Shown: piece after piece, positions 1 to 23,866 of the stretch
Layout of the letters: every line of letters begins with the position of its first letter
Numbering within the stretch: position 1 is the first letter of the stretch
From: Candidatus Hydrogenedentota bacterium
GTDB taxonomy: Bacteria; Hydrogenedentota; Hydrogenedentia; Hydrogenedentales; SLHB01
Reading direction: 5' to 3'
NCBI GenBank assembly: GCA_963668025.2
Contig: CAXXTH010000009.1
Location: 128,315 to 192,314, forward strand
DNA: 64,000 nucleotides
Notes under the pieces: generated by a model
The model's input: the letters and a program-made list of their open reading frames with translations, nothing else
What the model was told of the DNA's origin: nothing
Databases searched by the model: none
Position numbers and translations under genes: made by a program

Positions 1-173
1 TCGCTACGCCCTTCGCATGTTATCTCATAATAGCCAAAAAGGGCTTGGGCAACAATGGTGGCGGGCACGATTTTCTGAAGCACCCACTCGTTAGGAGTTC
101 GCAGGCAACATCCATGCGTGATGTGGTTCAACGTAAGGGCCTCGGGCGGAATCATTGCTGTGATGGATGCCAT
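1..173 (-). CDS. Partial CDS running off the window edge; possibly the N-terminal cupin/ligand domain of an AraC-type regulator, divergent from the GRE operon
   Basis: Hand-translated open frame from ATG at 173: MASITAMIPPEALTLNHITHGCCLRTPNEWVLQKIVPATIVAQALFGYYEITCEGRS. The AraC assignment rests only on beta-rich character and position. Confidence 0.4.
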   Translation of the reverse strand, partial: MASITAMIPPEALTLNHITHGCCLRTPNEWVLQKIVPATIVAQALFGYYEITCEGRS

Positions 174-660
174 GCGGCTACGCCTTTATGACTAAGATTG
201 CCTATGCCTGGCAAAAGCATATCAAATGAATCCGCATATTAAAAATGTTGCATGTTCCGTTTTCTCTAAGAATGAGGGCGGCGATGTATTTCGCGCATCA
301 TGGCCCGGATTGCTCACTGCGGCAGCCTTACCAGACGGGCAAAATTTTCAGATAAATATTCGCAATTCAAGGACATTCCCATGAAGACCAAATGGAGATT
401 ACAATATATCCATGAATCAACATGCATACAGCGATTCAACTGGCGATAAATGGTTGATTTTACACTGCGAAGTGAGCACCCGATGCACAGGCTGCTCTTC
501 TAACCCCCATCTCCGCAGAGGCGGAGGCAAACGCCAGGAAACGCGGCGCGTGGCAGGGACAACAGGCATGGATAAAGAGCGGCTTCGAGCCCATACCGGT
601 GAACATGAAGCATCACTTTAGGCGGATGTAGATTCTTCCTAAACGAGAGAGGAGCAAAAC

Positions 661-2946
661 ATGGCAAGTAAGGCAAGTGGAATGAACCGTCGGGATTTCT
701 TCAAATCCACGGGGGCGGGCGTTGCCCTTGCCGGTGGGTTGTTAGTTACAACTGCATCTGCATCCAGCGCCGCCGAAACCAAGCTTATTGACGGAACAAA
801 CCGCTATGTGTGGAGTGAGCCATGGCGGCCAGTTTCTCCGAGGCGTCTATCAGAACGGACGCATGAACTCACGCGGCTCGGGGCTTCGGGAGAACATGGC
901 CGTGCGATGGTAAAAGCCGATTTTAATCTGGACGAAGAGTTAATCAAGAGTCTCACACCTAATCAGCATTATGCGCAGGCGATTCGCTTGATCGGGGAGA
1001 AGGCCCCTTTGCGCATCTTGCCGGGCGAAAAAATCGTCGGCTCCGCCACCTTGCTTGAAGCGACTGCCGCATATACGCCGGTGTATAACCAACTAGCTCA
1101 AAATCACATGACGCTGGGCTTCGACCATGTGCTCACGATTGGATACAAAGGATTGCGTGAGCAGATCAATGAGCGATTAAGCCGGGGCGGATTGGACGCC
1201 AACGGGACGGACATGCTGCAAGCGATGCTGGTTTGCCTGGAAGGCGCGGAGATCTGGCGGCAGCGGAATATGGAATTACTGGCGAAACTGGCTAGTGAAT
1301 CCACCGGTGAAGATCAAGCCAATTATCTGCGCGTACGGGAAATCTTAGCGCGCGTGCCCGAGAATCCGCCCCAGACGTTCCATGAGGCGGTGCAATCGTT
1401 GTGGTTCATGTTCGCGTTCCAGCGGTTATGCGGCACTTTTTCAGGGATCGGCCGCTTCGACGAAATGTTGGGTGGCTACTTAGAGAAGGATTTACGCGAA
1501 GGGCGGCTAACCCTGGATGAAGCGCGTGAGATCGTGGCCCACTTCTGGATCAAGGGAACGGAATGGGTAGGCTGTTACAAAAATCCCGGCTCGGGCGATG
1601 GCATGTTTTTTCAAAACATCATCCTGGGCGGGATTGATGCCGATGGAAAATCGGTCACCAATGATGTCACCTACCTGGTGCTGGACGTGGTCGAGGAGTT
1701 GCATATTAGCGATTTCCCGATCGGGGTGCGTGTCAGCGAGCAGACTCCCAAAAATCTGCTTAGGCGTATCGCCGAGGTCGAGCGTTATGGCGGCGGGATC
1801 ATCGCCCTCTACCAAGAAGATGTCGTAATCGATGGATTGGTCAAGATAGGCGTTCCTCTTGCTGATGCGCGGCGCTTCACCAATGATGGCTGCTGGGAAG
1901 TCCAGGTGCCTGGGAAAACCTGTTTTATCTACTGGCCATTCGACATGCTGACTGTGCTACAGCGTTCGCTGGGCATTGATAATCCAGACACGCCCGCAGC
2001 CGATTTCGCCGACTTCGATGCGCTTTATGCGGCATATCATCAAGAGATGGACCGGCTGCTTACCCGTTTCCATACGGAAGCGGATTCTTATGCCTCGGGT
2101 GTCGGGACGACGCCGCTCGTTTCCATGTTTGTTCAAAACTGCATTGAAAGCGGGCGTGACTATTACGGGCGCGGCGCGCAATATCAGATGCTCTCGCCGC
2201 ATGCTGGCGGCATGGCGAACGTCGCCAACAGCTTGCTGGCGATTAAGCGGCTCGTATATGAAGACAAAACGCTCTCTTGGCCCGAGATGCTGGCGATTCT
2301 GCGTTCGGACTGGAAAGGGCAAGAGCAGTTGCGCCTCCTGGTGTTGAACCGGTTTGAATTTTATGGCAACGACAATGAAGAGTCCGATGCGATGATGCAA
2401 CGGGTATTCAATGATTACACGGATTTAGTCTGGGCCGTACCCGAACGCAATGGAGTTCTGCGGCCAGCAGGCATCAGTACTTTCGGACGCGAGTGCTACG
2501 CTTTCCTAGACACGGGTTTTTGCGGTTATGATACTCGCCGTGCTACAGCCGACGGGCACCGTGTAGGCGATGTGCTGGCCTGCAATTTTTCGCCTTCACC
2601 GGGAACCGATCGCAAAGGGCCTTCGGCTGTCCTCAATTCTTACTGCAAAATGGATTTTACTCGCACACCCAATGGAGCTACTTTGGAACTAAAGCTCCAT
2701 CCTTCGTCCTTGAAAGGTGAGGAGGGGCTCGATGCTCTGGTGGGGCTCATGCGCGGATTCATTCGCCAGCGCGGCTGGTTCGTCCATATCGACGTGGTCG
2801 ATTCGGCAATTATGGCCGATGCGAAGCTTCACCCGGAAAAATATCCCGACCTGGCGGTGCGCATATCAGGCTGGTCGGCCCGTTTCGCCTCACTTGACGA
2901 AAGATGGCAGAACATGATCATTAATCGTACGCAACAATACGTCTGA
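661..2946 (+). CDS. Glycyl radical enzyme (PFL-like superfamily) with N-terminal Tat signal peptide
   Basis: Cys loop NDGCWE (Cys411) and C-terminal Gly-radical loop LAVRISGWSARF (Gly737). N-terminus has MNRRDFFK, then the hydrophobic stretch GAGVALAGGLLV, then an ASA cleavage motif. AGGAG RBS at 650-654. Confidence 0.92.
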   Translation: MASKASGMNRRDFFKSTGAGVALAGGLLVTTASASSAAETKLIDGTNRYVWSEPWRPVSPRRLSERTHELTRLGASGEHGRAMVKADFNLDEELIKSLTPNQHYAQAIRLIGEKAPLRILPGEKIVGSATLLEATAAYTPVYNQLAQNHMTLGFDHVLTIGYKGLREQINERLSRGGLDANGTDMLQAMLVCLEGAEIWRQRNMELLAKLASESTGEDQANYLRVREILARVPENPPQTFHEAVQSLWFMFAFQRLCGTFSGIGRFDEMLGGYLEKDLREGRLTLDEAREIVAHFWIKGTEWVGCYKNPGSGDGMFFQNIILGGIDADGKSVTNDVTYLVLDVVEELHISDFPIGVRVSEQTPKNLLRRIAEVERYGGGIIALYQEDVVIDGLVKIGVPLADARRFTNDGCWEVQVPGKTCFIYWPFDMLTVLQRSLGIDNPDTPAADFADFDALYAAYHQEMDRLLTRFHTEADSYASGVGTTPLVSMFVQNCIESGRDYYGRGAQYQMLSPHAGGMANVANSLLAIKRLVYEDKTLSWPEMLAILRSDWKGQEQLRLLVLNRFEFYGNDNEESDAMMQRVFNDYTDLVWAVPERNGVLRPAGISTFGRECYAFLDTGFCGYDTRRATADGHRVGDVLACNFSPSPGTDRKGPSAVLNSYCKMDFTRTPNGATLELKLHPSSLKGEEGLDALVGLMRGFIRQRGWFVHIDVVDSAIMADAKLHPEKYPDLAVRISGWSARFASLDERWQNMIINRTQQYV

Positions 2947-2953
2947 GCCTGTC

Positions 2954-3856
2954 GTGGCGCAAGCGCTTGTTTTTCAGATACAACGTTTTTGCACGCACGA
3001 CGGTCCGGGCATACGCACGGCAGTTTTCCTTAAGGGATGTCCGCTGCATTGCGCATGGTGCCATAATCCCGAGTCACAGGGATTTGAGCGGGATTTGTTT
3101 TTCACGCCGGTGTTATGCATCGGGTGTGGCGCCTGCGCCGGGGTTTGTCCCCATAATGTGCATCGAATGGAGGATGGCCGCCATGTGTTGGACCGTAGCC
3201 GGTGCCACCGGTGCATGCGTTGTGTCGAGGTTTGCCCGGCCCGAGCCTTGGAGGTTGCGGGCCGGGCGGTGCTCGTTTCGTCGATTATCGATGAAGTAGA
3301 GCGCGACCGCATTTATTATGAAGAGTCGGGCGGCGGGCTGACCATCACCGGGGGCGAGCCGCTGGCGCATGTGAAATTCACCCAAGCCTTATTGGAAGAA
3401 GCCCGCCGCCGTGGCTTTCACACCTGCATCGAAACGTGTGGATTCGCTCCGCCCGAGCGGATAATGGCCTTGTCCGGGCTGGTCGATCTTTTCCTGTGGG
3501 ACATCAAAGACACGGATCCACAGCGCCACCAGGCAATGACCGATGCGCCACTGGCGCCGATTATGGATAATCTGAGGCGGGTGGATGCGGCCGGAGGGCA
3601 TACATGGCTGCGGTGCGTGCTGGTGGACGGCGTCAATCTAACCGAACCGCATATCGAGGCGCTGGCGGCATTATATAAAAGCTTGAGCCATTGCCAGGGC
3701 ATTATATTGCTGCCCTATCATCCCCTGGGTAACTCGAAACTGGAGAGGCTGGGGTTTACTGCGTGCGATGAGGATTTCAGGACGCCATCTCCCCAGGCGC
3801 TCGAAGCCGCCCGTGCCCGTTTGACTGGGTTAGGCGCTGTGTGCCTTGGCGAATGA
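2954..3856 (+). CDS. Glycyl-radical enzyme activating protein (radical SAM with two extra ferredoxin-type 4Fe-4S motifs)
   Basis: HDGPGIRTAVFLKGCPLHCAWCHNPE motif, two CxxCxxCxxxCP motifs, GGGLTITGGEPL. GTG start 7 nt after the GRE stop. Confidence 0.95.
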   Translation: MAQALVFQIQRFCTHDGPGIRTAVFLKGCPLHCAWCHNPESQGFERDLFFTPVLCIGCGACAGVCPHNVHRMEDGRHVLDRSRCHRCMRCVEVCPARALEVAGRAVLVSSIIDEVERDRIYYEESGGGLTITGGEPLAHVKFTQALLEEARRRGFHTCIETCGFAPPERIMALSGLVDLFLWDIKDTDPQRHQAMTDAPLAPIMDNLRRVDAAGGHTWLRCVLVDGVNLTEPHIEALAALYKSLSHCQGIILLPYHPLGNSKLERLGFTACDEDFRTPSPQALEAARARLTGLGAVCLGE

Positions 3857-4055: not shown

Positions 4056-6665
4056 TTATTCGCCAGTGGCCGCAGCATTCTCCACTTTTTTATACGTGAT
4101 CAGGTCAGAGGTGCGCGGCTCGGGTAAATCGAGCACGAGGCGCTTCATCAGTTCCGAGCCTATCATCTGGATTGTCTTTCCCGTCCGGTCGCTCTTGAGT
4201 TCATACATGGATTGCGGTTCAAGCCCTTGAAGGCGGACATCAAGAGTGCCATAAGGCGAATCCTTGCGGCGGAAAACAAGGAGCATTCCCTCGCCCAGCT
4301 CAGGCCGGTGGTATTGCGAGGCCACCCAGCTTGTATTCAGATGCTCATGATAGGGCGGATAATGCATCCCGCCAAGTTTGGGATCAGCAGGAAATTTGTC
4401 ATAATCCCATTCCCACATCTCCGCTTCCGAGGTTTGCTGTCCTGAATACTCGTAGGGGTAGGGAGTCAGCGGATACCATGCCCCCACCATAAGGTGGCGC
4501 ACCTGAAGGTAGCGGTCCGTCAAGGCTTTGGCCCGAGTGGAATCGAAGTCGGGAGCGTCGGCGATCCAGCCTAAGCACAACGAAGCCGCCAATGCCGAAT
4601 GGAAGGAGTAATCATCCATATTATTAATATGCGTGGACAATGTATTGTTGGGTAAATACTGGCTGATGGACCACACGCTGGCCTGGTTAGCCTCATCGTC
4701 AAACCAGTAATCCGCCAATTGGTGTATGTCCAGGCGCATGACGGTTCCCAACTCGATCCGGTGGCCGCCGCTGGCGCATTCATCCATGAAGCAATCAGGC
4801 CAGGCTGCCCGAATACGGTCCCAATAGGCATACATGCCTTCGACATACCGGATCTCGGTGATCCCTTGCCGGTTGGGGTCCGTATCGCCAATGTGCCAAT
4901 AGGGCAGCGGGTCCATGTTGAAATCCTGGCGGTAGACGCGGAAACCCGGCAGATCCATGAAGCCTTTGACGATGTTAAAGAAGTAGTCTTGCACTTCTTT
5001 CATGCCAAAATTGGCCAGGCAGGTGGTGTTGTTGGGATCATCAGGGAACAGCAGCCAGTCGGGATGATTTTGATGCAATGAAGTTCCCTTAATCACCCGT
5101 TCGGGTTCAAACCACAGGCCGTAGATCATTCCGTTTTCCTTGGCTGCCGCGGCCACTGGCCCCATGCCGTTGGGATAGGCATCTTTGCGTGGATCCCAGT
5201 TGCCAGCGCCCGCTGGCCAGCCGCCGGTGAACCAGCCCGCATCGGTGAATATGGCCTCCAGGCCCAGCGGGGCATAGGCCTTTATCAACGATATTTGATT
5301 TTGCTCGTTGCATTCATTAAGCCAGCCGCCGCCACGGGTGAATGCGGTGTTGCAAAAGAGCGTGGGCAGTGGGGCTTTGCCGGTGCGGCTCACCGCATAA
5401 TGTTTATAGATGAGCTGGCGGAAACGGGCGTGGGCTTCGTTAACCGTTGCTTCGTTCAGGACGAGCACGCGCGGCTGGCGCACCTTTTCACCGGAGTGCA
5501 GCAGGAAATGGGTCTTTTGCATGCCAGCGCGGGCGTGTAAATTACCTTCCTGATTGGAGAACTCTCCCTGCCACGTGCCGGACCATTCCAAGGTGAACAC
5601 AAAGGTTCCCTCGCCCGTTTCTAAACGGAAGAACGGCGCGTTCGAGGAGGAGGTGCGGCCGGAGAACGAACCGATGGTTTCGGTCACGCCATCATGAAGA
5701 TTGACGGTGTTCGGCTGTAACAAGGTCGGATGCGGCACGCCGCCACGCAGTTTCTGCAGGCGGTAAGGAATCGAGCCAGGCATGGTGTGGTTCCAGTTGA
5801 GGTCCAGCGATTGAATATCTTCTAGAATGGCGGTGTCTTGCTGGCCCGTGTTTTCAAAGTACAGAATCCAGTCCACCGCCGGGAAATCTTTATAGTAAAT
5901 GGATTCCCAGGCCACTTTGAGCTTGGTCTCCGGATCTTTCCAGGTTAGAGTTTTTTTGAAGCGGTCTTGATCCAACTCGCTCGATTTCTCCTCACAAGGC
6001 CACGCCTTCAGTAGTTCCCGGCTTGGCTTGCCGCCGTATGTAAATGAAAACGGAAAACCTGAGGGCAACACCTCTTTTTTCAGGGGCATCTGATCGAGCA
6101 TTTTTATCGTCCCTTTTTCCGTGATGATGGCGGCGTCCGCCCAATCCGCATGATCGCAACCGATGCCATCTCCCCCGTCGAAGGCCACCAAATCAAACTG
6201 CTTGGCTCCTCCTATCGCCACTTCAATGTGCTGTGGCTCCGAGTCATAACGAAACAAGTTGGAGCGATATACCTCGCGTTCATCAACCACAACGGAGAAA
6301 ATTATTGAAGCGCCCGTGGCCTGTGGATTTTGATCTACGCCAATCCAGGCGGAAAACGTCTTGACTGGTTCGGGCGAGTTTACGCGGATATGGCTGTTGG
6401 CATGTGCGCCTAAGCCATGGGCAAATTCTTTTTGGCCGAGCTTCATCGGCGTTTGAACCGCGGACTGGCCAAACTGTAATTCACAAGCATCCTGCTTGAG
6501 CAAATTAAGAACAAAATCGGTAGGTTCTGGAATGGAGTCCGCCCCTTTGGCCAGTGACTCTTGCCAAGGAGTCAAGCCTTGCGCCTCGCTCGGTTTACTC
6601 CCAAACGCGAAAACCAGCGCGAGAATAGCAAGCGTTATTCTTAATCGTTGCATCTTCTTTTTCAT
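4056..6665 (-). CDS. Secreted GH36 alpha-galactosidase-like glycosidase with N-terminal NPCBM carbohydrate-binding domain
   Basis: Sec signal (MKKKMQR...SEA). NPCBM motifs HGLGAHANS and DHADWADA. GH36 motifs FTDAGWF, GLWFEPE, YRQDFN, ECASGGHR. Confidence 0.88.
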   Translation of the reverse strand: MKKKMQRLRITLAILALVFAFGSKPSEAQGLTPWQESLAKGADSIPEPTDFVLNLLKQDACELQFGQSAVQTPMKLGQKEFAHGLGAHANSHIRVNSPEPVKTFSAWIGVDQNPQATGASIIFSVVVDEREVYRSNLFRYDSEPQHIEVAIGGAKQFDLVAFDGGDGIGCDHADWADAAIITEKGTIKMLDQMPLKKEVLPSGFPFSFTYGGKPSRELLKAWPCEEKSSELDQDRFKKTLTWKDPETKLKVAWESIYYKDFPAVDWILYFENTGQQDTAILEDIQSLDLNWNHTMPGSIPYRLQKLRGGVPHPTLLQPNTVNLHDGVTETIGSFSGRTSSSNAPFFRLETGEGTFVFTLEWSGTWQGEFSNQEGNLHARAGMQKTHFLLHSGEKVRQPRVLVLNEATVNEAHARFRQLIYKHYAVSRTGKAPLPTLFCNTAFTRGGGWLNECNEQNQISLIKAYAPLGLEAIFTDAGWFTGGWPAGAGNWDPRKDAYPNGMGPVAAAAKENGMIYGLWFEPERVIKGTSLHQNHPDWLLFPDDPNNTTCLANFGMKEVQDYFFNIVKGFMDLPGFRVYRQDFNMDPLPYWHIGDTDPNRQGITEIRYVEGMYAYWDRIRAAWPDCFMDECASGGHRIELGTVMRLDIHQLADYWFDDEANQASVWSISQYLPNNTLSTHINNMDDYSFHSALAASLCLGWIADAPDFDSTRAKALTDRYLQVRHLMVGAWYPLTPYPYEYSGQQTSEAEMWEWDYDKFPADPKLGGMHYPPYHEHLNTSWVASQYHRPELGEGMLLVFRRKDSPYGTLDVRLQGLEPQSMYELKSDRTGKTIQMIGSELMKRLVLDLPEPRTSDLITYKKVENAAATGE

Positions 6666-6922
6666 ATATCTACTCCCCTTTGAACTGAGAAAGCTTTTTT
6701 ACAGTTATCAAGCATTTATAGGATCCATTGGGTTTGATTTTGTGTGCAGATGCAGTTCGCAGATTGATGAGTATGGTTTAGGTTTTTGTGTGGACCCTCC
6801 CCTATTATGTATACCGAGTATACTTTAGCGTAATTCAAAACGGTTGTATGATTCAACAAAGTGCGAAATCTTGATATCTGATTCTTGGCGCTACGATCAG
6901 CAAATTCTCGTGGAGATCCGGT

Positions 6923-7396
6923 TCATGCCGTTTGTTTTTGTAGCGCGCCGTTGAATTTTACAATGACCTTCTTGATTTCCCGTGGATGCCCGGATGGCGT
7001 TATCGCCGGTAGATGAATCTCGCCTGGAAAGAAGACGATGAAGAAGCCTGGATGTAGTGTAATAAGATCCCCATCTCCATCCAGATGGCATATGTCTTTT
7101 TCTTTATTATATTCGCTGCTATGCGTCATCAGGGCGGCATGGGAGAATCCTATTTTCTCTTGCCCTTCCGCCAGGAAATGCACATCCGCATATTTTTGAT
7201 GCGCTTCCCATTGCGCCTCTTCCGGCAGGCGGCTTTGCATGCGGCGCACTTTCACAAACACGTTGCCGCCATCCAGGGCATAATCGCCATGCTCAACGGT
7301 GGTGAAATCAGTCTGCTTCAGATATTCCAGCGCATGGCGGATTCCATCCCCCAGTGCGTAATATTTTTGGGCATTATCGATATGATCGATGATCAT
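6923..7396 (-). CDS. YhcH/YjgK/YiaL family protein (NanQ-like sugar anomerase/isomerase accessory)
   Basis: MIID start with AAGGA RBS; WEAHQKYADVH and FFPGEIHLP motifs. Confidence 0.88.
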   Translation of the reverse strand: MIIDHIDNAQKYYALGDGIRHALEYLKQTDFTTVEHGDYALDGGNVFVKVRRMQSRLPEEAQWEAHQKYADVHFLAEGQEKIGFSHAALMTHSSEYNKEKDICHLDGDGDLITLHPGFFIVFFPGEIHLPAITPSGHPREIKKVIVKFNGALQKQTA

Positions 7397-7427
7397 GCTG
7401 GTTTCCTTTTCTAGGTGCTCGCAACGC

Positions 7428-8588
7428 TCAACGGTAGCCCGTGCAAGCGTCGTAATCGACAAAAGTGGCGCGTTCGGCATCGGCTGCTTCGGGGGATAGC
7501 GGCAGGCGTACAGTCTCTTTGCGTTTAAGAGAAAGCAGTGCAGCCACGTTCAATTCATACGCTTTGTAACCGTCCCAGCCTGTCACCAATGGTTTTTCTT
7601 CATCGCGGATGACTTGCAGGAAGTTTTCGATCAATCCCATGAAGCCCCCGAATTCTTCATCGAACAGGAGCGTATTCGGGATCACGGGGCGCCAGCTTTT
7701 AGCGGGGCCTTCTTCGCTGTCATAAAGGTGAAGCTCGTATTGGTCTTCCACCGATAGCCACGCTTTCTCGCCGTAGATCTCGATCCGCTCCCAGGGCTTG
7801 AGGCTCAAGGCCGAACAACTGGTGTAGATCTGGCCTATCGAGCCTGATTCGAACTCGAAGTCGAGCATGGCGCTGTCGAAGGGATACAGATCGTGGTTGC
7901 GGTGGTATTTGTTGACGCCGATGGCGTGAACCGTGGCGGCGTCTCCCATGAAATAGCGCGCCAGGTCCAACACATGGATTGTTCCGGCTTCGAGCATATG
8001 CACCACGTAATCGTAGCCCAGGTTGAATTTGCCCGCCAGCATCGCCGGGTTGTGGACAAGTCCTTCATCGATCAATCGCTTGGCGCGGCGGTAGGGAGGA
8101 CTGAAACGCTTGTTGGAGACGGTCATCACCGGCACGCCGCGTTGGTCAGCCAGTGAGCACACACGGTGTCCTTCAACCAATGACAGTGTGAATGGTTTTT
8201 CGACGAGAATGGGCAACCCTCGTTCGATGCAGGCGATTGCGTGCTCCGCATGTACCTGATTGGGGCTGAAAATCATCACGCCATCCAGTGGCTCTTGTTC
8301 GAGCATCTGTTGGTAATCGCCATACCATCTGCCGCCCCATGTGCGCTCGATCAAGCGCCCGGCTTTCTCGTCGCGGCGGCAGAAGGCCGCCACCTCGACA
8401 GGCTCCCATATCGTTTGCAGGCGTTTGATCGCCGGGAAATGCTTACTGACGGTTACTCCGCCCGCGCCGATGATGCCGAGACGGAGAGGGCGGCGTGCGG
8501 CGCGGGCCTCGTCGAATCCCACGCCATAAACGTCAGCCTCTTCAAACATCTTCTTGATTGGTGAATGGCCATAGGTCTCTTCTAGCAT
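7428..8588 (-). CDS. Gfo/Idh/MocA family NAD(P)-dependent oxidoreductase
   Basis: LGIIGAGG Rossmann motif; HAEHA..LVEKP; GTIHVLDL. Confidence 0.9.
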   Translation of the reverse strand: MLEETYGHSPIKKMFEEADVYGVGFDEARAARRPLRLGIIGAGGVTVSKHFPAIKRLQTIWEPVEVAAFCRRDEKAGRLIERTWGGRWYGDYQQMLEQEPLDGVMIFSPNQVHAEHAIACIERGLPILVEKPFTLSLVEGHRVCSLADQRGVPVMTVSNKRFSPPYRRAKRLIDEGLVHNPAMLAGKFNLGYDYVVHMLEAGTIHVLDLARYFMGDAATVHAIGVNKYHRNHDLYPFDSAMLDFEFESGSIGQIYTSCSALSLKPWERIEIYGEKAWLSVEDQYELHLYDSEEGPAKSWRPVIPNTLLFDEEFGGFMGLIENFLQVIRDEEKPLVTGWDGYKAYELNVAALLSLKRKETVRLPLSPEAADAERATFVDYDACTGYR

Positions 8589-8605
8589 GATCGGTTGCCT
8601 TTCGT

Positions 8606-9274
8606 TCAGTCGATGACGCCTACGACGGTACAAGGTCCGCTATCCATATCTTTGACCAGCCATGGGTTGATACGGACTTCACGCAATCCGTTCAGGTCGT
8701 GTTCGAGGTTCATTTCCTCAATCACCAGGAAACGCCTGCCTTCGCCTTCCAACAAAACGTTATGGGCGCGCATGGTTTGTTCGAGGTGCGCGATGCAAGC
8801 GAGTGACGGCACATCGAGCCCCAGGGCGCGCAGTTGAGGGCATTCCCGGCGAATCCATTGTGCGGCTTCGATGCCTAGGCCCGGCATGCGCTGGCTGAAG
8901 CGTGGCTTATCGCTCCGGCGTATCGCGCCCGCGCCAAACCTTAAGAGTGCGAAATCAGTAGTTTTCAAGGCTTCCTGATGTGGAATGAGATCCTCTGGCA
9001 TAACCACTTGCCCATCATTCAGCTTTAGTTCCACTACGACAGGCTGCGAGAAAATCAGTTCCTCGGGAGCGAACTCGGTGATCTGCACGCCGCCTTCCAC
9101 CACATGGCAGGCCGTGTCCAGATGTGTGCCCGTATGATTGGCCACCGTGAGCACTTGCACGCTGGCGGCGTCCTTGGCGACCGTGGAGAGCGGCGTCAAG
9201 GACGGAGCCGGGATAGCAGGAGGACGTGGGCCATCCACATCGAGCGGAAAGGATAACCAGACATATCGTGGCAT
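8606..9274 (-). CDS. Cyclase family (kynurenine formamidase-like) metal-dependent hydrolase
   Basis: NHTGTHLD motif, LGLDVPS, C-terminal DSGPC. AGGAG RBS before ATG 9274. Confidence 0.85.
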   Translation of the reverse strand: MPRYVWLSFPLDVDGPRPPAIPAPSLTPLSTVAKDAASVQVLTVANHTGTHLDTACHVVEGGVQITEFAPEELIFSQPVVVELKLNDGQVVMPEDLIPHQEALKTTDFALLRFGAGAIRRSDKPRFSQRMPGLGIEAAQWIRRECPQLRALGLDVPSLACIAHLEQTMRAHNVLLEGEGRRFLVIEEMNLEHDLNGLREVRINPWLVKDMDSGPCTVVGVID

Positions 9275-9288
9275 TCCATGCACTCCTG

Positions 9289-10017
9289 TTACGGCAATTC
9301 CGGCGCATTCCGTTTGGCTTCGCGGACGATCTCGATATACTTTCGGCATTGCTTGGAGATCCAGTCCACGCCTTCGCGCTCGATCATCGCCGGGTCCACG
9401 AAATTACGCGCGCCGCTGATCGCGCAAGCTCCACAGCGTATGAAGTCGCCCGCATTTTCCAAGCTGATTCCGCCCGAGGGACATAGGTTGACCTCGGGAA
9501 AAACCATCTTGAGATTGGTCATGTATTTTGGCCCGCCCAGTCCTGCCGGGAAAATTTTGACCATGGTCGCGCCGGCCCTCATGGCGGTGAAGACCTCTGT
9601 CGCCGTGAAGGCCCCCGAGAAAATCGGCACGCAGTAACGGTTGGCCAGGTCGATGACTTCGGGGATCACGCACGGATTGACGATGACGCTTCCGCCGTGG
9701 AGGATCACCTCCCGTGCGCTCGTGGCATCGAGCACCGTCCCGGCGGCGACCCACAGCTTGCCCTTGAATTCACTGGCTATCGCTTCGATTGCCCCCAACA
9801 CGCCGGGGGTTGTCATCGTGATCTCGATGATGCGCGCGCCGCCTTCATAGAGCGCTTGGGCCCACGCCATAAAATCGGCTTTTTTCTTGAGTTTCATCGC
9901 GGGCAGTATGCCCGAAGCCTTGACTTGCTCGATGACGATCTCTTTAAGTGTGGCGTCGCTGCGGCCCGGCGCCGATGTGTCTGTATCCGTTTGCATGATG
10001 CTTTCACTCACTTTCAT
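9289..10017 (-). CDS. eda: KDPG/KHG aldolase family protein
   Basis: IEITMTTP, AGTVLD, VKIFPA, PSGGIS motifs. Confidence 0.85.
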   Translation of the reverse strand: MKVSESIMQTDTDTSAPGRSDATLKEIVIEQVKASGILPAMKLKKKADFMAWAQALYEGGARIIEITMTTPGVLGAIEAIASEFKGKLWVAAGTVLDATSAREVILHGGSVIVNPCVIPEVIDLANRYCVPIFSGAFTATEVFTAMRAGATMVKIFPAGLGGPKYMTNLKMVFPEVNLCPSGGISLENAGDFIRCGACAISGARNFVDPAMIEREGVDWISKQCRKYIEIVREAKRNAPELP

Positions 10018-11009
10018 CGCTTGACTTCAAAAGCGGTCTCATCGCTCGATTTTTTCATGAGAGTTTCGACTTCTTCCTTCGAGACATGGCCCACATCGCC
10101 CGGGACGGTGTGGTGCAGCGCACAAAAAGCGTTGCCGAAGTTCATCGCATACTCAGGATCGCCTGTAGTCAGATAGGCATACAGGAAGCTCGAACCCCAT
10201 GCATCGCCGCCGCCGAAGCGGTCGATTACATCAATAGTATGCTTTTTGCCGTGCAGCACCTGGCCGTCCGTATAGAGCATCGTATTCCATCCGCCGTGTA
10301 GGACGTCATAAACTTCGCGCAACGTGATCGCGACAATCTTGCAGCCGAACTCTTCGTGGAACTTCTTGATGATGTCTTCGTATGCCCCCTTGTAGCCGAA
10401 GACAATTTCCGAATCCCACTGGGTCGTGATCAGGATATCGGCATGTTTGATGATCTCGCTTTGCACGCGCCGGGCCTCCTCGGGGCTCCATAGGTGTTCG
10501 CGATAATTGACATCGAAGCCAATGAGGCAGCCTTGCCGTTTAGCGGCTTGAATGAATTCGAGAGCGGCTTCGGTGCAGTTCTTCGAAAGACCAGGAAAGA
10601 TGCCATCGGTGTACGCGAGCTTGGCTCCCTTGAGAATCGTGTCCCAATCAAAATCGCCTGGCGCGATGGTGCTGGCGGCTGAATTCTTACGATCATAGAC
10701 CACCGCGCTGGGGCGGGGGGTTGCGCCGAACTCGATATAATTCACGCCCAGGCGGGAACCATCCACCATCTGGATCAAGGAAGCATCCACACCGCAGCTC
10801 ATGTAATGGTCTTTCATGAGCAGGCCCAAGGCGTTGTTGGGCACTTTGGTGGCGAAGGTGGTTTTGAGTCCCAATCGCGCCATATTGCTGGCCACGTTGC
10901 CTTGCGAGCCGCATACATGCACATCAAACGTGTGCGCCCGGCGAATCCGTTCATAACGCGGAGGGGACAAACGCAGCATCCCTTCTCCTACTGTCACCAC
11001 ATCAAACAT
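10014..11009 (-). CDS. kdgK: PfkB family sugar kinase, 2-keto-3-deoxygluconate kinase-like
   Basis: GEGMLRLSPP, VVYDRKNSA, FDVNYREHLW, DRFGGGDAW. Confidence 0.82.
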   Translation of the reverse strand: MFDVVTVGEGMLRLSPPRYERIRRAHTFDVHVCGSQGNVASNMARLGLKTTFATKVPNNALGLLMKDHYMSCGVDASLIQMVDGSRLGVNYIEFGATPRPSAVVYDRKNSAASTIAPGDFDWDTILKGAKLAYTDGIFPGLSKNCTEAALEFIQAAKRQGCLIGFDVNYREHLWSPEEARRVQSEIIKHADILITTQWDSEIVFGYKGAYEDIIKKFHEEFGCKIVAITLREVYDVLHGGWNTMLYTDGQVLHGKKHTIDVIDRFGGGDAWGSSFLYAYLTTGDPEYAMNFGNAFCALHHTVPGDVGHVSKEEVETLMKKSSDETAFEVKR

Positions 11010-11070
11010 GCTGTTTTTCTCCTAGCATCTATTGTTGTTTGTTGGTACTGCATATGTTTCAGCGCCTATC

Positions 11071-12243
11071 TCAGCGCGGGGTCGCGTCGGGAAGTCCGCC
11101 GTCAATTGGAATCGTTGCACCCGTAGTGGGCGTTTGATGGGTTACGAAGAACAGCACCGCATTGGCCACATGGCGCGATGTCACACGCATCTTGAGCAGG
11201 TTGCGGTTTCGGTAGTATTCTTCTAGTCCACCTTCATCGAGTCCGCGCGCTTTCATCCGATCCGGCCCCACCGTGGCCCAGAGGCCCGATTTGGTCTTAC
11301 CGTCGTCCGAGAAAACGCCATCGGGAGCGACCATGTTAACTCGGATGCCAAACTCGGCTAGTTCCAGGCTGGCGATGCGGGCAAGCTGGTGGCTGGCGGC
11401 TTTAGTCGCGCTGTATGCTCCGAACCGCGCTCCGGGCGCGAAGACGTTCTTGGTCGAAACGAGTACGATATCGCCGCCTGTATGTTGGAGCTGCATAATC
11501 CGTGCTGCTTCGGCCAGCGTCAGCAATGTGCCATCCACATTGACCTGCTCTAATTTTTGGAAGGCCGCTAGTGTCAATTCGGTGAGCGCAGCCACATGGG
11601 CGATCCCCGCATTGAGGACGACGATGTCCACCCCGCCCCAGGCCAAACAAATTTGCGTAAAGCCATGTTTGACAGATTCTTCACTGGTGACGTCAATGGG
11701 CGTTGCGATGATACGCTGGCCAAACTCGGCTTCGAACTCATCTCTAAAATGCTCCAGCGCTTCTCCTGGCAAATCAGCTCCGGCCACATACGCGCCTTGC
11801 TCCAGCAACCGCCGGCAGATGCCCCGGCCGATAGCCCCGGCTGCTCCGGTCACCAGCGCCACACGTTGATGGAGTGGGAGGGATGATGTTGCGGCGTCTT
11901 CAGGCGCGGGCATCACAATGCCCCGCTGGCGCACGCACACCGCCGTTGGGCTTGCACCATGCTCCTGTGTGAATTGTGTAAAGGCCTCTGCCGCTTGCCC
12001 ACGCCAGGATTGCGGTGTTTCACCTTCCGCCATCGGCTCCACCACCAACGGCGGCTGGTTCAGCGATGCGGGCAACGCGGCCTTGCCTGGGCCTTCGGCG
12101 TACTCCCTTGATTCCGGATCCGTCATTGTTCTCAAGATCACAGGCTGCCAGGGCACATCGGCGTCACCGGTGGGCTGGGCGAACAGCCCGCGCAAGGCGG
12201 GGGCTAATGCGCCTAACATGCATTCGGCCATCGCGTTGCTCAT
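11071..12243 (-). CDS. SDR oxidoreductase resembling the C-terminal domain of bifunctional aldolase/dehydrogenases (RhaEW-like), with a shortened N-terminal domain
   Basis: VALVTGAAGAIG, VLNAGI, YSATK, C-terminal TTGATIPIDGGLPDATPR. Confidence 0.8.
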   Translation of the reverse strand: MSNAMAECMLGALAPALRGLFAQPTGDADVPWQPVILRTMTDPESREYAEGPGKAALPASLNQPPLVVEPMAEGETPQSWRGQAAEAFTQFTQEHGASPTAVCVRQRGIVMPAPEDAATSSLPLHQRVALVTGAAGAIGRGICRRLLEQGAYVAGADLPGEALEHFRDEFEAEFGQRIIATPIDVTSEESVKHGFTQICLAWGGVDIVVLNAGIAHVAALTELTLAAFQKLEQVNVDGTLLTLAEAARIMQLQHTGGDIVLVSTKNVFAPGARFGAYSATKAASHQLARIASLELAEFGIRVNMVAPDGVFSDDGKTKSGLWATVGPDRMKARGLDEGGLEEYYRNRNLLKMRVTSRHVANAVLFFVTHQTPTTGATIPIDGGLPDATPR

Positions 12244-12548
12244 GATGATGGCTCCGAGGCTTTCGGGAAGGCCTTGAGCGTGGGCAGCACTTCAGACCAC
12301 TCGAAGACTCCCGCTCGCATATAGGGGTCGGAGGCCATCAAGGCTTTGGCGTTTTCGAGTGTTTCGGCCTCGAAGATGATTAGTGAGCCGATAGACTTGC
12401 TCGTGTCACTATTTTTTAAAGGACCAGCGAAGAGAAGGCAGCCTGAGGCGTCCAGCCGCGCCATGTGCGCCAAATGCGCATCCCGGTTTGCGGTGCGTAA
12501 ATCGCCGCCCTCTAGCTTGTCTTTTGCATATAAAACAAAAATACACAT
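12240..12548 (-). CDS. YciI family protein (dimeric alpha+beta barrel)
   Basis: R..NRDAHL, FAGPL, GSLIIFEA, DPY..AGVF. Confidence 0.88.
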   Translation of the reverse strand: MCIFVLYAKDKLEGGDLRTANRDAHLAHMARLDASGCLLFAGPLKNSDTSKSIGSLIIFEAETLENAKALMASDPYMRAGVFEWSEVLPTLKAFPKASEPSS

Positions 12549-12568
12549 CTATCATCGCTCCTGTTGCG

Positions 12569-13456
12569 TTAGTTTGCCCGTTCGCTTTGGCGAAGCTCTT
12601 GCCATAGGGCGTATGCGTCCTTGGGCTTCATGTTTTCATGCACGACACGCGCGACTACTTCCATCATGGACTTGGGCGCATCGCTTTGGAAAATGTTGCG
12701 TCCCATGTCCACGCCAGACGCCCCGCCCTGGATGGCGTTGTAGGCCATCGTCAGCGCGTCCAATTCCGGCAGCTTTTTGCCTCCGGCCATCACGATCGGC
12801 ACGGGGCACGAGGAGGTGATCGTTTCAAAATCCTCGTCCACGTAATAAGTCTTGACGAGATTTGCGCCCAATTCGGCACAGATGCGGCAGGCCAGGCGGA
12901 AGTATCTAGCGTCGCGCACCATATCCTTGCCCACGGCGGTCACGGCCATCGTCGGGATGCCATATTTGAAACCCAAATCCACCAGCCGGGTCATGTTATG
13001 CACCGAGCGGGTCTCAAATTCACCCCCGATGAATACCTGCAAGGTCAGAGCGGAGACATTCATGCGAATGGCGTCTTCAATGTCCACTGCTAGTTCTTCG
13101 TTGGAGAGTTCCTTGAGGATCGATGGGCCGCCCGAGCAGCGCATCACAATCGGCTTGTTGAGTGTGGGTGGCACGACGCTGCGTAAGATGCCCCGGGTCA
13201 GCATCAGCGCGTCGGCCTGCGGCATCAACGGCACGATGCTCAAATCCACCCGTTCCAGCCCTGTTGTGGGCCCTTGGAAGTACCCATGGTCAATGGCCAG
13301 CATCACCGTGCGGCCCGTCGATGGGCGGAAAATGCGCGATAAACGATCTTTCATTCCCCAATCGAGGTTTTGTGCGCCTTTCAAGAAAAAGCCATCGCTT
13401 TTCTGGGGAATATCGGCATAGAACCTTTTCGCTTCTTTTTCATCTGCTTCCGGCAT
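12569..13456 (-). CDS. lsrF: LsrF-type 3-hydroxy-5-phosphonooxypentane-2,4-dione thiolase (class I aldolase fold)
   Basis: [51 protein letters not shown]. Confidence 0.9.
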
Positions 13457-13501
13457 GTTCGCTGTTCCTTTCTATCTAGATTTCTTGAACGGAGTGCATG
13501 G

Positions 13502-14203
13502 CTACTCGAGGACATCCGCCAAGTCTTCCGCACGCCCATATTTATATAGATAGCGGTGGCGTTCTTCGCGCCACAACGTCTCGGGGATCTCAACCACTCC
13601 GCCTATCGCTTGGACCTGAATGAGAATCTGCGCCGCTTTTTCGACAAACCGGCAGCAGACGACGGCCTCATCCATTGTGCGCCCGCCACAAATCACGCCA
13701 TGATTGCCCATGAGCACCGCGCACGCATCGGGGCCGATGGCCGCTCGGGCCGCCGCCGCCAGTTCCTTGTGGCGGCCCGCGGGAACATAAGGTGCGCAAT
13801 TGACTTGGCCTCCGATCACTTCGGCCATGTCATCGCTCAAGACGGGGATCGCCTTGTGGGCGCAGGCGACGGCCGAGCTCCAAGGAGCGTGGTGGTGAAT
13901 CAGCACGGCAAGATCGGGCCGTTCGAGCATGATCTGGCGGTGAAGCTCCGTCTCGCTGGTGGGCACGCGCTCGCCCTTGAGCTTCTTGCCTTCCCAGGAG
14001 ACCAGCGCCAAATCTTCCGGCGTAAGTTCCTCGTAGTTGACGCGCGAGGGCGTAACTAGCAATCCCTCTTCCGTGCGCACCGACATATTGCCCCAGGTGC
14101 CGACGAAGTACGCAAGCGTATCGCGCATGAAAAAACAAGTCTCCAATACGCGGCGACGCAGTTCGACGGTATCCGCAAGCGGCTGGATAGGTTCATTTGC
14201 CAT
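13502..14203 (-). CDS. Class II aldolase/adducin family (L-fuculose-1-phosphate aldolase-like)
   Basis: GNMSVR, VTPS, PTSETELH, IHHH, MGNHG. Confidence 0.88.
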   Translation of the reverse strand: MANEPIQPLADTVELRRRVLETCFFMRDTLAYFVGTWGNMSVRTEEGLLVTPSRVNYEELTPEDLALVSWEGKKLKGERVPTSETELHRQIMLERPDLAVLIHHHAPWSSAVACAHKAIPVLSDDMAEVIGGQVNCAPYVPAGRHKELAAAARAAIGPDACAVLMGNHGVICGGRTMDEAVVCCRFVEKAAQILIQVQAIGGVVEIPETLWREERHRYLYKYGRAEDLADVLE

Positions 14204-14205
14204 GG

Positions 14206-15369
14206 TTATTCCTTCCGATCTTTTTGGGTGAAATCCGCCAGCCATTGGCTGTCCCATAGCGAGGGAAATGAATGCGCCTCGTATGGGTGGGCGGCAATAG
14301 CGGCTTCATCGAGTTCAATGCCGAGTCCAGGGCCTTCTGGTAGCCTGAACTCACCATGCTGGACGGGCTCCCAGCCGCACACGAAGCTATTGCGCCAGGG
14401 CACATCGTATTGGGAGAAATTCTCTTGCATCCAAACCTGCGGCGTAGCCCATCCGAAATGCAGCGCCGCACAAAGCGCCACCGGGCCCACGGACACGTGC
14501 GGGGAAAGCCGGATATCTTGCGCTTGAGCCATAGCGGCGATTTTCTTGCCCATCCACAGCCCGCCGCAGTGCGAGAGATCCGGTTGAAGCACGTCCATCG
14601 CACGCATGGCGCAAGCCCGCCAGAATTCCTCCAATGTATAGAGCCGCTCCCCGGCGGCAATGGGATACGGCAGCGCCTGCTTGACTTCCATGAGCAAATC
14701 CAGGCTGTTGGGTGACACCGGCTCTTCGAAGAACGCCGGGCGGTATTTTCCGAGCCGACGCCCTATCTCGATGGCGCATCCAGCCGACAAGCGCCCGTGG
14801 CCTTCAAGCAAGAGTTCGATGTGTGCGCCGATGGCGCTGCGGACAACCGCGACCCGTTCCTCGGCCACGTCCATTTCCTCGCGTGTCATATCCTTCCAGG
14901 CGGTGCCAAACGGATCGAGCTTCATGCCTCGATAGCCCAGTGATACGACATCCTTCGCTTTTTCCGCATATTCTTCCGGAGTGTGTGCGCCACCATACCA
15001 GCCATTGGCATAGGCTGGGAGAGAGCGCCTCGCACGGCCGCCCAGCAATTGGTAAACGGGAACCTTAAGCGCTTTGCCCAGAATGTCCCACATGGCGATC
15101 TCGACGGCGCTGATCGCGGTCATCACGGTCGAGCCGCCTTGATACTGATCCCGGATTAGCGCACTTACGACCGCTTCGAGCTCAGACGGGTCTTTGCCCA
15201 TAATGCGGCTTTCAACCCATTCATGCAGCAGTGTCTGCACAGTCTTTTCTTGCCATTCCAGCGAGGCTTCTCCCAGGCCGGTCAGGCCCCGGTCCGTGGT
15301 AAGGCGCACGAACAGGTAGTTACGAAGGCCTGAGTTTGCAAGGAACGTTTCGAGTTTCGTGATCTTCAT
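14206..15369 (-). CDS. Mandelate racemase/enolase-superfamily acid-sugar dehydratase (galactonate dehydratase-like)
   Basis: EIAMWDILGK, PVYQLLGG, YANGW, FEEP, AAGE, QPDLSHCGG, PGLGIE. Confidence 0.88.
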   Translation of the reverse strand: MKITKLETFLANSGLRNYLFVRLTTDRGLTGLGEASLEWQEKTVQTLLHEWVESRIMGKDPSELEAVVSALIRDQYQGGSTVMTAISAVEIAMWDILGKALKVPVYQLLGGRARRSLPAYANGWYGGAHTPEEYAEKAKDVVSLGYRGMKLDPFGTAWKDMTREEMDVAEERVAVVRSAIGAHIELLLEGHGRLSAGCAIEIGRRLGKYRPAFFEEPVSPNSLDLLMEVKQALPYPIAAGERLYTLEEFWRACAMRAMDVLQPDLSHCGGLWMGKKIAAMAQAQDIRLSPHVSVGPVALCAALHFGWATPQVWMQENFSQYDVPWRNSFVCGWEPVQHGEFRLPEGPGLGIELDEAAIAAHPYEAHSFPSLWDSQWLADFTQKDRKE

Positions 15370-15383
15370 GAGTGTTCCGCCTT

Positions 15384-16454
15384 TCAGGCTCCTAGCAAAA
15401 CACGTGCGATGGCCTCGATGGCCGTCTTGTCACCACGGAAGGCCCACACCTGGCTATTCTCTTCGGTGGCGAACTGTCCCTCATGCGCGGCAATCGCTGG
15501 TGCGTGATATTCCATCTCGCAGAAGTCGCCCAGCGCGCTCTCGATATTCACGGCATTGATCGCATAACCTAGGTCTGCCGGGTCGCCCTTGGGCACATCC
15601 ACATATTCGCCAGAGGGATTAACGTGAAAGTTGCGCACCACCAGCGACCATTGCTCGCCTTGCGGATACAGGTAGCCCACTCGGCCGCAGATGGCTGCCG
15701 CGCGTATGGCGATTTTATGTTCACCAGGATAGGTCACGCTCCAGCGAAGCAGCCGATCACCAATGCTCATTTTATCCGCGGGCAGCTCGCCGAAAAGCGC
15801 CAGCGGTTCGGTTTTGTAATAGGTCGGCACGATCAGCTCGCCTCCATGGGGCAACTGAATCAAGTTCCAGATGCCTAGCGCGGTGGGATTCTTCTCTGCT
15901 TCTCCTAGTAGCGCCAGTGTCGTGCGCTGCGTGTAACCGGCATATGCGACGTTCTCTAGAAGCGAAGCATATTCTTGTTCATGACGCAATGGGCATGCGG
16001 CGGCGCTTAGCGTTTTGGATAGTTCAAGCTCGACCGTGCGGCAGGGCCGGGCCAGCTCGAGCTGCATGCGCTGCGCCAAGCGAAGCCCTGCGCCTGAGTG
16101 AGATATTGTATATTCACTTGCGTCCAATTGGGGTGGCTCCCAATGCGCCTGGCACTTGGGATAATCGGGAAAGAAGATATCCAGTTCGGGTGAAATCCAG
16201 GTGCGGTCGCCGCCGGTGTTATGCCAGCCCTCGCTGGCAAACAGCGCTTTGGCCTCGGAAGGCTCCTCCAACGCTTGATTGGCCCAGTAAAAATTCACTT
16301 CACTATTTGCAGGATACAACCCCAGCACGCGCGCGCCATGCGGCAATACAAGCAGCTTCGCGCCGTCTGTGCACGTATACACATGCGCCTCTTTGCCTGC
16401 CGCCGCCAGCCCCGCGAGCAGCGTATGCATCGTTCCTTCAGCCATGAGTTTCAT
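15384..16454 (-). CDS. Uncharacterised protein, probable galactose-mutarotase-like beta-sandwich
   Basis: GARVLGL and WHNTGGDRTWISPE; C-terminal CEMEYHAP; operonic position. Confidence 0.55.
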   Translation of the reverse strand: MKLMAEGTMHTLLAGLAAAGKEAHVYTCTDGAKLLVLPHGARVLGLYPANSEVNFYWANQALEEPSEAKALFASEGWHNTGGDRTWISPELDIFFPDYPKCQAHWEPPQLDASEYTISHSGAGLRLAQRMQLELARPCRTVELELSKTLSAAACPLRHEQEYASLLENVAYAGYTQRTTLALLGEAEKNPTALGIWNLIQLPHGGELIVPTYYKTEPLALFGELPADKMSIGDRLLRWSVTYPGEHKIAIRAAAICGRVGYLYPQGEQWSLVVRNFHVNPSGEYVDVPKGDPADLGYAINAVNIESALGDFCEMEYHAPAIAAHEGQFATEENSQVWAFRGDKTAIEAIARVLLGA

Positions 16455-16475
16455 CGTCGAGTTCCTTGATTGATG

Positions 16476-17540: not shown

Positions 17541-17643
17541 GTTTACCGCGCCCCCTGTAATCGTTTTTTCATATCACCGGCCATTGAAATGCTGGCCAAT
17601 CTCAAAAAATCATTTTCTCCATACCTCAATAGCACCGGAACAC

Positions 17644-23789: not shown

Positions 23790-23866
23790 TGGCGCGCCTG
23801 ATGCGATTCGAACGCATGACCTACGGCTTAGAAGGCCGTTGCTCTATCCTGCTGAGCTACAGGCGC
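23790..23866 (-). tRNA. tRNA-Arg (anticodon UCU)
   Basis: Reverse complement GCGCCTGTAGCTCAGCAGGATAGAGCAACGGCCTTCTAAGCCGTAGGTCATGCGTTCGAATCGCATCAGGCGCGCCA folds as a cloverleaf with TTCGAAT T-loop and encoded CCA. Confidence 0.97.

Follow-up and report, generated by a model that had tools for sequence, protein, structure and literature searches.

A conserved twin-arginine-type leader in a family of eliminase-type glycyl radical enzymes points to possible export from the cytoplasm

To our knowledge, all characterized glycyl radical enzymes (GREs) reside in the cytoplasm or in microcompartments, are devoid of signal peptides and work beside machinery that is able to re-install their radical. 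Two kinds of described systems nevertheless offer points of comparison for a GRE that might leave the cytoplasm. The first comprises substrates of the twin-arginine translocation (Tat) system, which moves proteins that have been folded or matured in the cytoplasm; TorA, DmsA, the [NiFe] hydrogenases and NADP-bound glucose-fructose oxidoreductase, with other GFO/IDH/MocA enzymes, display an S/T-R-R-x-F-L-K leader, a weakly hydrophobic h-region and an AxA site, and carry an element installed in the cytoplasm outwards within the folded protein. The second comprises the anaerobic sulfatase maturases and QhpD (the client of the latter is quinohemoprotein amine dehydrogenase), in which a signal-less radical S-adenosylmethionine (SAM) enzyme matures a client endowed with an export signal before that client is exported. 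Here we examine a GRE gene and the adjacent gene for its activase in a stretch of 64,000 nucleotides from the genome of a Candidatus Hydrogenedentota bacterium of the lineage SLHB01 (hereafter the window; Table 1). The GRE carries a predicted Tat-type leader that is conserved in a clade of its relatives, and we lean, by a little, towards a reading in which activation takes place in the cytoplasm, Tat exports the folded enzyme, and the periplasm is where it works as a radical eliminase.

Examination of the GRE reveals a PFL-like domain (348.6 bits, residues 138-601) followed by a Gly_radical domain (78.6 bits versus 22.2, residues 642-742). Its AlphaFold model, computed from a 32-row alignment, has a mean pLDDT of 88.2 and a pTM of 0.88 and supports a ten-stranded α/β barrel with a TM of 0.80-0.82 to solved GREs. 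The stretch N408-E413 (NDGCWE), which holds the catalytic cysteine, is invariant across 32 family members, V733, R734, G737 and W738 of the glycyl radical loop are invariant in the family, and Gly737, Cys411, Glu413 and His149 are invariant among the signal-bearing members. Judged by the radical motif, the catalytic cysteine, the modelled barrel and the CX3CX2C motif of the activase, the protein belongs to the GRE superfamily. By sequence as well as by fold, the solved structures that come nearest are those of 1,2-propanediol dehydratase, B12-independent glycerol dehydratase, HypD, CutC and PflD/YbiW, at 22-26% identity. With the GRE 1,2-eliminases as a group (1r8w, 5i2a/5i2g, the trans-4-hydroxy-L-proline dehydratase HypD (6vxc), the choline TMA-lyase CutC, and the anhydrohexitol-phosphate dehydratases PflD/YbiW) it shares the fold (TM 0.79-0.82, being 0.80 for the 1,2-propanediol dehydratase 5i2g; Foldseek E-values down to 9e-46), the glycine loop, the Cys-x-Glu loop and the type of activase with two ferredoxin clusters (TIGR02494). 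Cys411 and Glu413 align with Cys433 and Glu435 of the glycerol dehydratase 1r8w and His149 with its His164; the catalytic roles of these reference residues, and of Asp447, are taken from the literature. It differs from these eliminases in a shorter, family-specific N-terminal region and in Trp425, which replaces Asp447 of 1r8w.

A glutamate two positions after the cysteine marks GRE eliminases, although some decarboxylases have it too. None of the NCBIfam models is passed by the GRE, the best being that of the PFL2-3 subfamily (348.8 bits versus 678.2), and the miss of this cut-off together with Trp425 at the position of Asp447 sets aside a diol or glycerol dehydratase proper. HypD (332 bits versus a cut-off of 1100) and CutC (235 versus 1050) can likewise be rejected, as can HpsG/HpfG, the indoleacetate or HPA decarboxylases and the PFL equivalogs, all of which score far below their NCBIfam cut-offs; the Protein Atlas returned only unnamed "PFL-like" clusters. 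An active-site match to His281/Ser282 was also considered, and no conclusion is drawn on counterparts of these residues because the alignments to 5i2a and 1r8w disagree. We file the enzyme as a putative eliminase-type GRE that would lie outside every characterized specificity.

The N-terminus of this enzyme reads MASKASGM-NRRDFFK-STGAGVALAGGLLVTTASASSAA-ETK. The motif N-R-R-D-F-F-K occupies residues 9-15, with the twin arginines at residues 10-11 (nucleotides 688-693), and is followed by 23 uncharged residues; the leader has a Gly/Ala-rich h-region and A-S-A at residues 32-34, after which come two serines. Cleavage would be expected after Ala34, with S-A-A at residues 36-38 as a possible alternative site. 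In the model, residues 1-52 lie outside the predicted fold (pLDDT <50), with a sole helix at residues 10-23, and the confident fold starts at about residue 55. The h-regions of Tat signals are less hydrophobic than those of Sec signals; on the best 12-residue Kyte-Doolittle window the leader scores 1.97, versus 2.91 for the Sec-type signal of the neighbouring GH36 protein. The family-wide medians, 1.59 for leaders with both arginines (RR forms) and 1.76 for those in which only the first is retained (R-x forms), likewise lie below this neighbouring Sec-type signal. Throughout the family the h-regions are Gly/Ala-rich and weakly hydrophobic with a recurring ALGGGL core, ASA, AQA or AEA motifs occur at the expected distance in many members, and many leaders are then followed by a low-complexity linker of 20-30 residues, which leads to W-R-P-x-x-P-x-R-L-S, the conserved motif at the start of the fold. 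A predicted complex of TatC with residues 1-60 of the GRE (score 0.00, mark 0.32) weighs neither way.

The activase, a member of TIGR02494 (306.6 bits versus a cut-off of 174.35), is separated from the GRE gene by 8 nucleotides. It contains the radical SAM motif CPLHCAWC (CX3CX2C, residues 29-36) and two ferredoxin-type CX2CX2CX3C clusters at residues 55 and 84, and begins directly at the conserved FQIQRFCTHDGPG block. The first-pass annotation of the window had described a GRE that starts behind a strong AGGAG ribosome-binding site, keeps both of its catalytic elements (the cysteine in GCWE and the glycine in RISGW), bears a near-consensus Tat peptide and is accompanied by an activase without a signal peptide. 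This description stands throughout: the AGGAG precedes the start codon, with an in-frame stop further upstream at 640-642, Cys411 and Gly737 can be read from the sequence, the leader motif, the uncharged stretch and the ASA are all present, and the start of the activase at its conserved block leaves it signal-less.

A word-indexed search with the GRE recovered 1781 relatives at E <= 1e-10, of which the best 120 were inspected. A fixed, home-made leader rule (RRx[FLIVMA][LIVMFAKT] starting no later than about residue 45, with 12 or more uncharged residues behind it) is passed by 85 of these 120, versus 1 of 100 full-length GRE representatives from outside the family that were taken from an exhaustive representative search. 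The family logo, [NDS]-R-R-[DE]-F-[LIV]-K, is the canonical Tat motif. Among the 35 that fail the rule, four hold RR leaders that it misses (P0035, P0055, P0085 and P0117) and two have gene calls whose start falls within the h-region (P0010 and P0013); the remainder start at or just before the fold-opening motif. Neither a chance match nor a wrongly placed start codon accounts for the leader. The single protein outside the family that passes, P0202, belongs to a different GRE clade (32% identity) and has the Tat-like leader I-P-R-R-E-F-L-Y followed by an uncharged stretch; it represents either a second independent case or chance.

A parallel scan of genome loci, with one genome per species, yielded 574 relatives, of which the best 80 loci were kept and joined by the two copies from the SLHB01 genome. 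Four of these 82, being fragmentary or frameshifted, were left out (L035, L041, L060 and L043, the "RR" of the last being a false match inside the enzyme), and the 78 usable loci comprise 33 with RR leaders, 11 with R-x leaders, all from Bacteroidales, and 34 with none. In trees restricted to the mature domains (built with FastTree and, in a quick run, with IQ-TREE, and with two distant GREs of the SLHB01 genome as outgroup) all 44 signal-bearing rows fall, together with 5 signal-less ones, in a clade of 49 rows (local support 85) that spans Planctomycetota, Hydrogenedentota, Armatimonadota, Bacteroidota, one Sumerlaeia and two records labelled Nitrospirales. The sister clade of 27 rows (support 97), from Chloroflexota, Lentisphaerota, Firestonebacteria and some Planctomycetota, contains no signals at all. 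The distribution of the leader needs 4 state changes in both the FastTree and the IQ-TREE trees, versus a mean of about 25.5 when the labels are shuffled, with 0 of 500 shuffles as low as 4. The leader is a strongly clade-bound and old trait, although the support of 85 is no proof of a single gain. In a subgroup of Armatimonadia (P0081, P0084, P0088 and locus L073) an h-region-like ALGxGLxLFG stretch is present without the twin arginines, and this looks like a decaying remnant of the leader.

The source genome (24 contigs totalling 6.15 Mb, with a completeness of about 94%) codes for four GREs: both copies that belong to the leader clade have the RR motif, and the two of other clades (28-29% identity) are without a leader. 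In the tree, GREs of this genome stand among Hydrogenedentota and Planctomycetota rows. The second leader-bearing copy (C17:989289-991568; locus L082, 10001-12280) is 64% identical to that of the window. It too is preceded by a divergent AraC gene and followed by an activase 8 nucleotides downstream. The genome also possesses a TatC (212.3 bits, C11:129170-129877), whose nearest named relatives are from Hydrogenedentes at 45-52% identity, and TatA/B-like genes just downstream of it (C11:129989-130075) and at C10:98297-98449. TatC is also present in 12 of 15 other holder genomes that were checked, the three misses being draft genomes that are perhaps incomplete. A loose regular-expression scan of 7881 long open reading frames in the source genome gave 72 raw Tat-like matches, of which about 15-20, as an impression by eye, resemble true Tat leaders, on sulfatase-like and oxidoreductase-like proteins. 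The Tat route that had been proposed in the first pass is in line with these findings in that TatC and TatA were found when tat genes were looked for and the RRxF peptide proves to be kept among homologues with the DGCWE loop. Five sequencing runs from three studies contain part or all of the window; they are of DNA or unknown type, and no RNA run is among those listed.

Analysis of the activases sheds further light on where the radical could be installed. None of the adjacent activases in the surveyed loci has an N-terminal extension with a hydrophobic region, and because all activases are signal-less, activation must be cytoplasmic. Among loci that extend 1 kb or more downstream, an activase lies within 2.5 kb of 26 of 40 signal-bearing GRE genes, whereas of the 29 signal-less genes 4 have one (Fisher p = 2.3e-5, with no correction for shared ancestry), an excess that would fit a need for stoichiometric, timely and co-expressed activation before export. 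In Alistipes hominis New-7, the sole locus of the 80 without a metagenome-assembled or uncultured-bacterium label in its record title, Gly_radical matches no protein other than the signal-bearing GRE, and the one activase that passes TIGR02494, of 300 residues, is signal-less and unlinked to the GRE. Directly upstream of this activase lies a gene for a 950-residue secreted protein without a Pfam family (L090, 9616-12468, G001:C7), relatives of which were found neither beside the other GRE loci nor in the SLHB01 genome.

Starting from the features of the protein, the way these are conserved and distributed over the tree, the presence of tat genes and the cytoplasmic nature of the activases, we infer export, its place in the order of events, cleavage, reaction class and substrate as follows. 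The precursor would fold, and probably dimerize, in the cytoplasm, where the signal-less radical SAM activase, using SAM and a reductant, would install the backbone radical on Gly737. The Tat translocase would then recognize the N-R-R-D-F-F-K leader, the folded and activated enzyme would cross the cytoplasmic membrane, and the leader would probably be cut after ASA34. In an anoxic periplasm the radical would move to Cys411, with Glu413 and His149 supporting a cofactor-free 1,2-elimination, either a dehydration or a C-X lyase reaction, on a small polar compound that is most likely carbohydrate-derived. Since the radical can come only from a cytoplasmic activase acting on a folded GRE, a GRE bound for the periplasm would need Tat rather than Sec. 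Moreover, an activated GRE eliminase needs no ATP, NAD(P)H, B12 or diffusible cofactor and so suits the periplasm, and a periplasmic location would, by analogy with the microcompartments of other GRE eliminases, keep reactive aldehyde products away from the cytoplasm. The comparative tests all favour the first-pass proposal of activation in the cytoplasm followed by export with the radical in place, which may be regarded as partly supported. Extended to the whole clade, with its four phyla and a cultured Alistipes from the human gut, cytoplasmic activation followed by Tat export with the radical in place seems to us evenly poised between right and wrong.

The logic of such a scheme would be that of the TorA- and DmsA-type substrates, and both the SLHB01 genome and Alistipes hominis use RR leaders of this kind on other enzymes. 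The cargo would be of another nature, namely a backbone radical in place of a metal or nucleotide cofactor, and, unlike in those systems, no gene for a leader-binding chaperone was seen beside the GRE in the neighbourhoods examined. Likewise, the sulfatase maturases and QhpD leave a stable modification (formylglycine or a thioether), whereas here the product of the radical SAM enzyme would be an oxygen-labile, reactive radical. In its composition the locus is an ordinary GRE-activase pair with an unprecedented, conserved export-type module.

Several observations weigh against export of an active enzyme. The Pfam model TAT_signal (PF10518) scores only 18.3 bits on the whole protein and 19.3 on its first 60 residues, below the gathering score of 22.7; on the first 60 residues of ten members it matches five (E 0.00056-0.054), all sub-threshold, and there is no match in three RR forms and both R-x forms among these ten. 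The leader has been lost at least 3 times inside the 49-row clade. No alignment column separates the signal-bearing mature domains from those of the signal-less sister clade at the level of at least 85%, and the two are alike in cysteine count, length and net charge; given that the signal-less mature domain is indistinguishable, the same enzyme evidently functions in the cytoplasm as well, in many lineages, and its mature part bears no mark of a periplasmic life. The eleven Bacteroidales leaders have the form S-R-[K/A/S]-[E/D]-F-[LI]-[KR], in which the second arginine is lost (R-K in 6, R-A in 4 and R-S in 1, that of Alistipes hominis) but the motif is otherwise intact and still followed by a weakly hydrophobic h-region. 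Canonical S/T-R-R-[DE]-F-L-K leaders are found in 8 of the 15 GFO/IDH/MocA proteins of Alistipes hominis, so that the loss of the second arginine is specific to the GRE; this change may reflect weakened or slowed export, a switch of pathway, re-purposing or decay. Further, no conserved periplasmic partner or transporter was found beside the GRE among the loci surveyed, the recurrent AraC neighbour is a cytoplasmic sensor, and a radical quenched in the periplasm could not be restored there.

Many of these points would be accommodated if the leader did not serve translocation, with the enzyme staying in the cytoplasm or on the inner face of the membrane and the leader acting in chaperone-style proofreading or activation timing, as a membrane tether, or persisting as a vestige like that of NarG. 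The indistinguishable mature domain of the sister clade, the R-x variants in a genome whose other Tat substrates keep both arginines, the sub-threshold Pfam scores and the cytoplasmic location known for all characterized GREs speak for it. In NarG, however, neither an h-region nor a cleavage site is left in the remnant leader. A vestige would not be expected to keep the F-L-K motif, a Gly-rich uncharged h-region of at least 12 residues and an AxA across four phyla, and signal losses in the family are complete except in the Armatimonadia subgroup, where the twin arginines are gone and the h-region-like stretch is left. We therefore regard a leader without a role in translocation as unlikely.

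If the enzyme is exported by Tat, the leader might still remain uncleaved and act as a signal anchor on the outer face of the cytoplasmic membrane. The low-complexity linker between many leaders and the fold would suit such an arrangement, and AxA-like sites easily arise by chance in Ala-rich sequence, so that the cleavage site is a putative one. Conversely, the h-regions are short and, at the median hydropathy given above, would make a poor membrane anchor, and AxA-type motifs stand at the expected distance in many members; an anchored form is thus quite unlikely. A somewhat greater doubt attaches to the possibility that the enzyme is exported but has no radical outside, leaving unactivated or being quenched, so that the periplasmic form would be inactive or have a non-radical role. 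Nothing known couples activation to export, and signal-less activases cannot regenerate a radical in the periplasm. Yet such an enzyme would hardly account for the invariance of the four catalytic residues in the signal-bearing members or for the preference of activases for signal-bearing neighbours, and it would leave the one PFLE_PFLC activase of Alistipes hominis without a working client; we consider it improbable.

More improbable still is the export of the activase itself, bound to the GRE as a Tat "hitchhiker", with re-activation outside the cytoplasm. Tat does export hetero-oligomers in which a single subunit bears the signal, as in the hydrogenases and DmsAB, and the short gap between the two genes would favour a complex; however, SAM and a low-potential electron donor are not known to be available in the periplasm, and in many holders of the leader, Alistipes hominis among them, the activase gene lies away from that of the GRE. 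An annotation artefact, in which translation starts downstream and the RR peptide is never made, a concern raised in the first pass, is hardly credible, since the leader is conserved as amino-acid sequence in at least 85 homologues and 44 loci across at least four phyla and the Shine-Dalgarno-like element serves the upstream ATG, even though in-frame starts occur after the twin arginines (TTG27, GTG50 and ATG83 only, of which the first two could be invoked).

Export of the activated enzyme through Tat would, if true, make this the first extracytoplasmic GRE, and a protein-based glycyl radical would have to survive membrane translocation. For radical enzymology, this raises the question of whether a radical installed once could be used outside the cytoplasm without repair; for protein export, it raises the questions of whether Tat would accept a dimer that bears a radical and has a mass of about 160 kDa, and of what would hold export back until activation. 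A search of the open literature (PMC papers and bioRxiv, with subscription journals and supplements outside its range) found no description of an exported GRE, in agreement with the first-pass claim that no characterized example is known, and passages of PMC9324843 and PMC6258724 make no mention of one. A precomputed PF10518 match exists for 2 of the 120 homologues, so databases may already mark the feature without any discussion of it having followed. Anaerobic phyla that degrade glycans commonly have the family, which also occurs in gut Bacteroidales, and, as Alistipes hominis holds a signal-bearing GRE as its only GRE, a cultured organism exists for experiments. Were export to be disproved, there would still be a large uncharacterized GRE family with an unexplained conserved N-terminal module.

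Table 1. Coordinates of features in the window, and members of two variant groups
Feature	Coordinates or members	Strand	Basis
AraC-family regulator, 5' part, divergent; whole gene (G000:C9:127603-128487) runs off the window	1..173	-	Open reading frame listing, clustering
Shine-Dalgarno-like AGGAG, 6 nt before ATG 661	650..654	+	Read directly
GRE precursor, 761 aa	661..2946	+	PFL-like and Gly_radical domains, AlphaFold model
Predicted twin-arginine-type signal peptide, residues 1-34	661..762	+	Sequence, family logo, hydropathy, model
Cys loop G-C-W-E: Cys411 (nt 1891-1893), Glu413	1888..1899	+	Sequence, family invariance
Glycyl radical loop R-I-S-G-W: Gly737 (nt 2869-2871)	2860..2874	+	Sequence, Pfam Gly_radical
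GRE-activating radical SAM enzyme, 300 aa, GTG start, without signal peptide	2954..3856	+	TIGR02494
Convergent gene run, partly sugar-utilization	4056-18702	-	Pfam on part
GH36 alpha-galactosidase, Sec signal, NPCBM domain	4056-6665	-	Pfam
tRNA-Arg(TCT), only RNA gene in the window	23790-23866	-	Rfam and tRNA scans
R-x leader loci, Bacteroidales	L011, L013, L015, L019, L020, L022, L023, L024, L027, L032, L072		
Laminin_G_3 long forms	Homologues of about 950-980 aa within P0007-P0114; loci L034, L039, L042, L049, L056, L058, L063-L065		

Within the family, long variants of about 960 residues (950-980), mainly from Hydrogenedentota, contain an insert of about 215 residues with a ConA-like Laminin_G_3 domain, placed in the surface loop that residues 179 and 184 flank in the window enzyme; 41 of 43 such variants have the leader. 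It is conceivable, if doubtful, that these Hydrogenedentota variants act directly on glycans that the cell is unable to import, in a radical breakdown of polysaccharides. The signal-less forms of Lentisphaerota (P0122; L059, L066 and L067), of about 875 residues, have an insert of their own of about 150 residues without a Pfam match, located just after G-E-I-G-R-S-M and hence at a different site from that of Laminin_G_3.

When genes up to 6 kb away from the GRE were clustered across the 78 loci, only three neighbours recurred: the activase in 27 loci, an AraC regulator in 11 of them and a sulfatase in 7. The sulfatases lie beside signal-bearing genes in 4 cases and beside signal-less ones in 3, which gives no basis for a link. 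A substrate could not be read from gene neighbourhoods either, as the neighbours in Odoribacter, Phycisphaerae, the second copy of the SLHB01 genome and Alistipes hominis are unrelated or unannotated. The AraC gene of the window clusters with the one upstream of the second GRE copy and with the AraC genes beside the GRE in the 11 loci; Pfam HTH_18/HTH_AraC was found on the AraC of the second copy and on one cluster representative. More generally, AraC or IclR regulators adjoin the GRE, and a ribose-type periplasmic binding protein with an ABC permease is encoded upstream of the second copy. Downstream of the activase in the window, the convergent minus-strand run includes, besides the alpha-galactosidase, Pfam-annotated genes for a YhcH/DUF386 protein, a GFO/IDH/MocA oxidoreductase and a cyclase-family protein, and its last open reading frame resembles, by eye, a LacI-type regulator. 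Together, the regulators, the ribose-type transporter, this sugar cluster and the Laminin_G_3 insert hint weakly at a link to carbohydrates.

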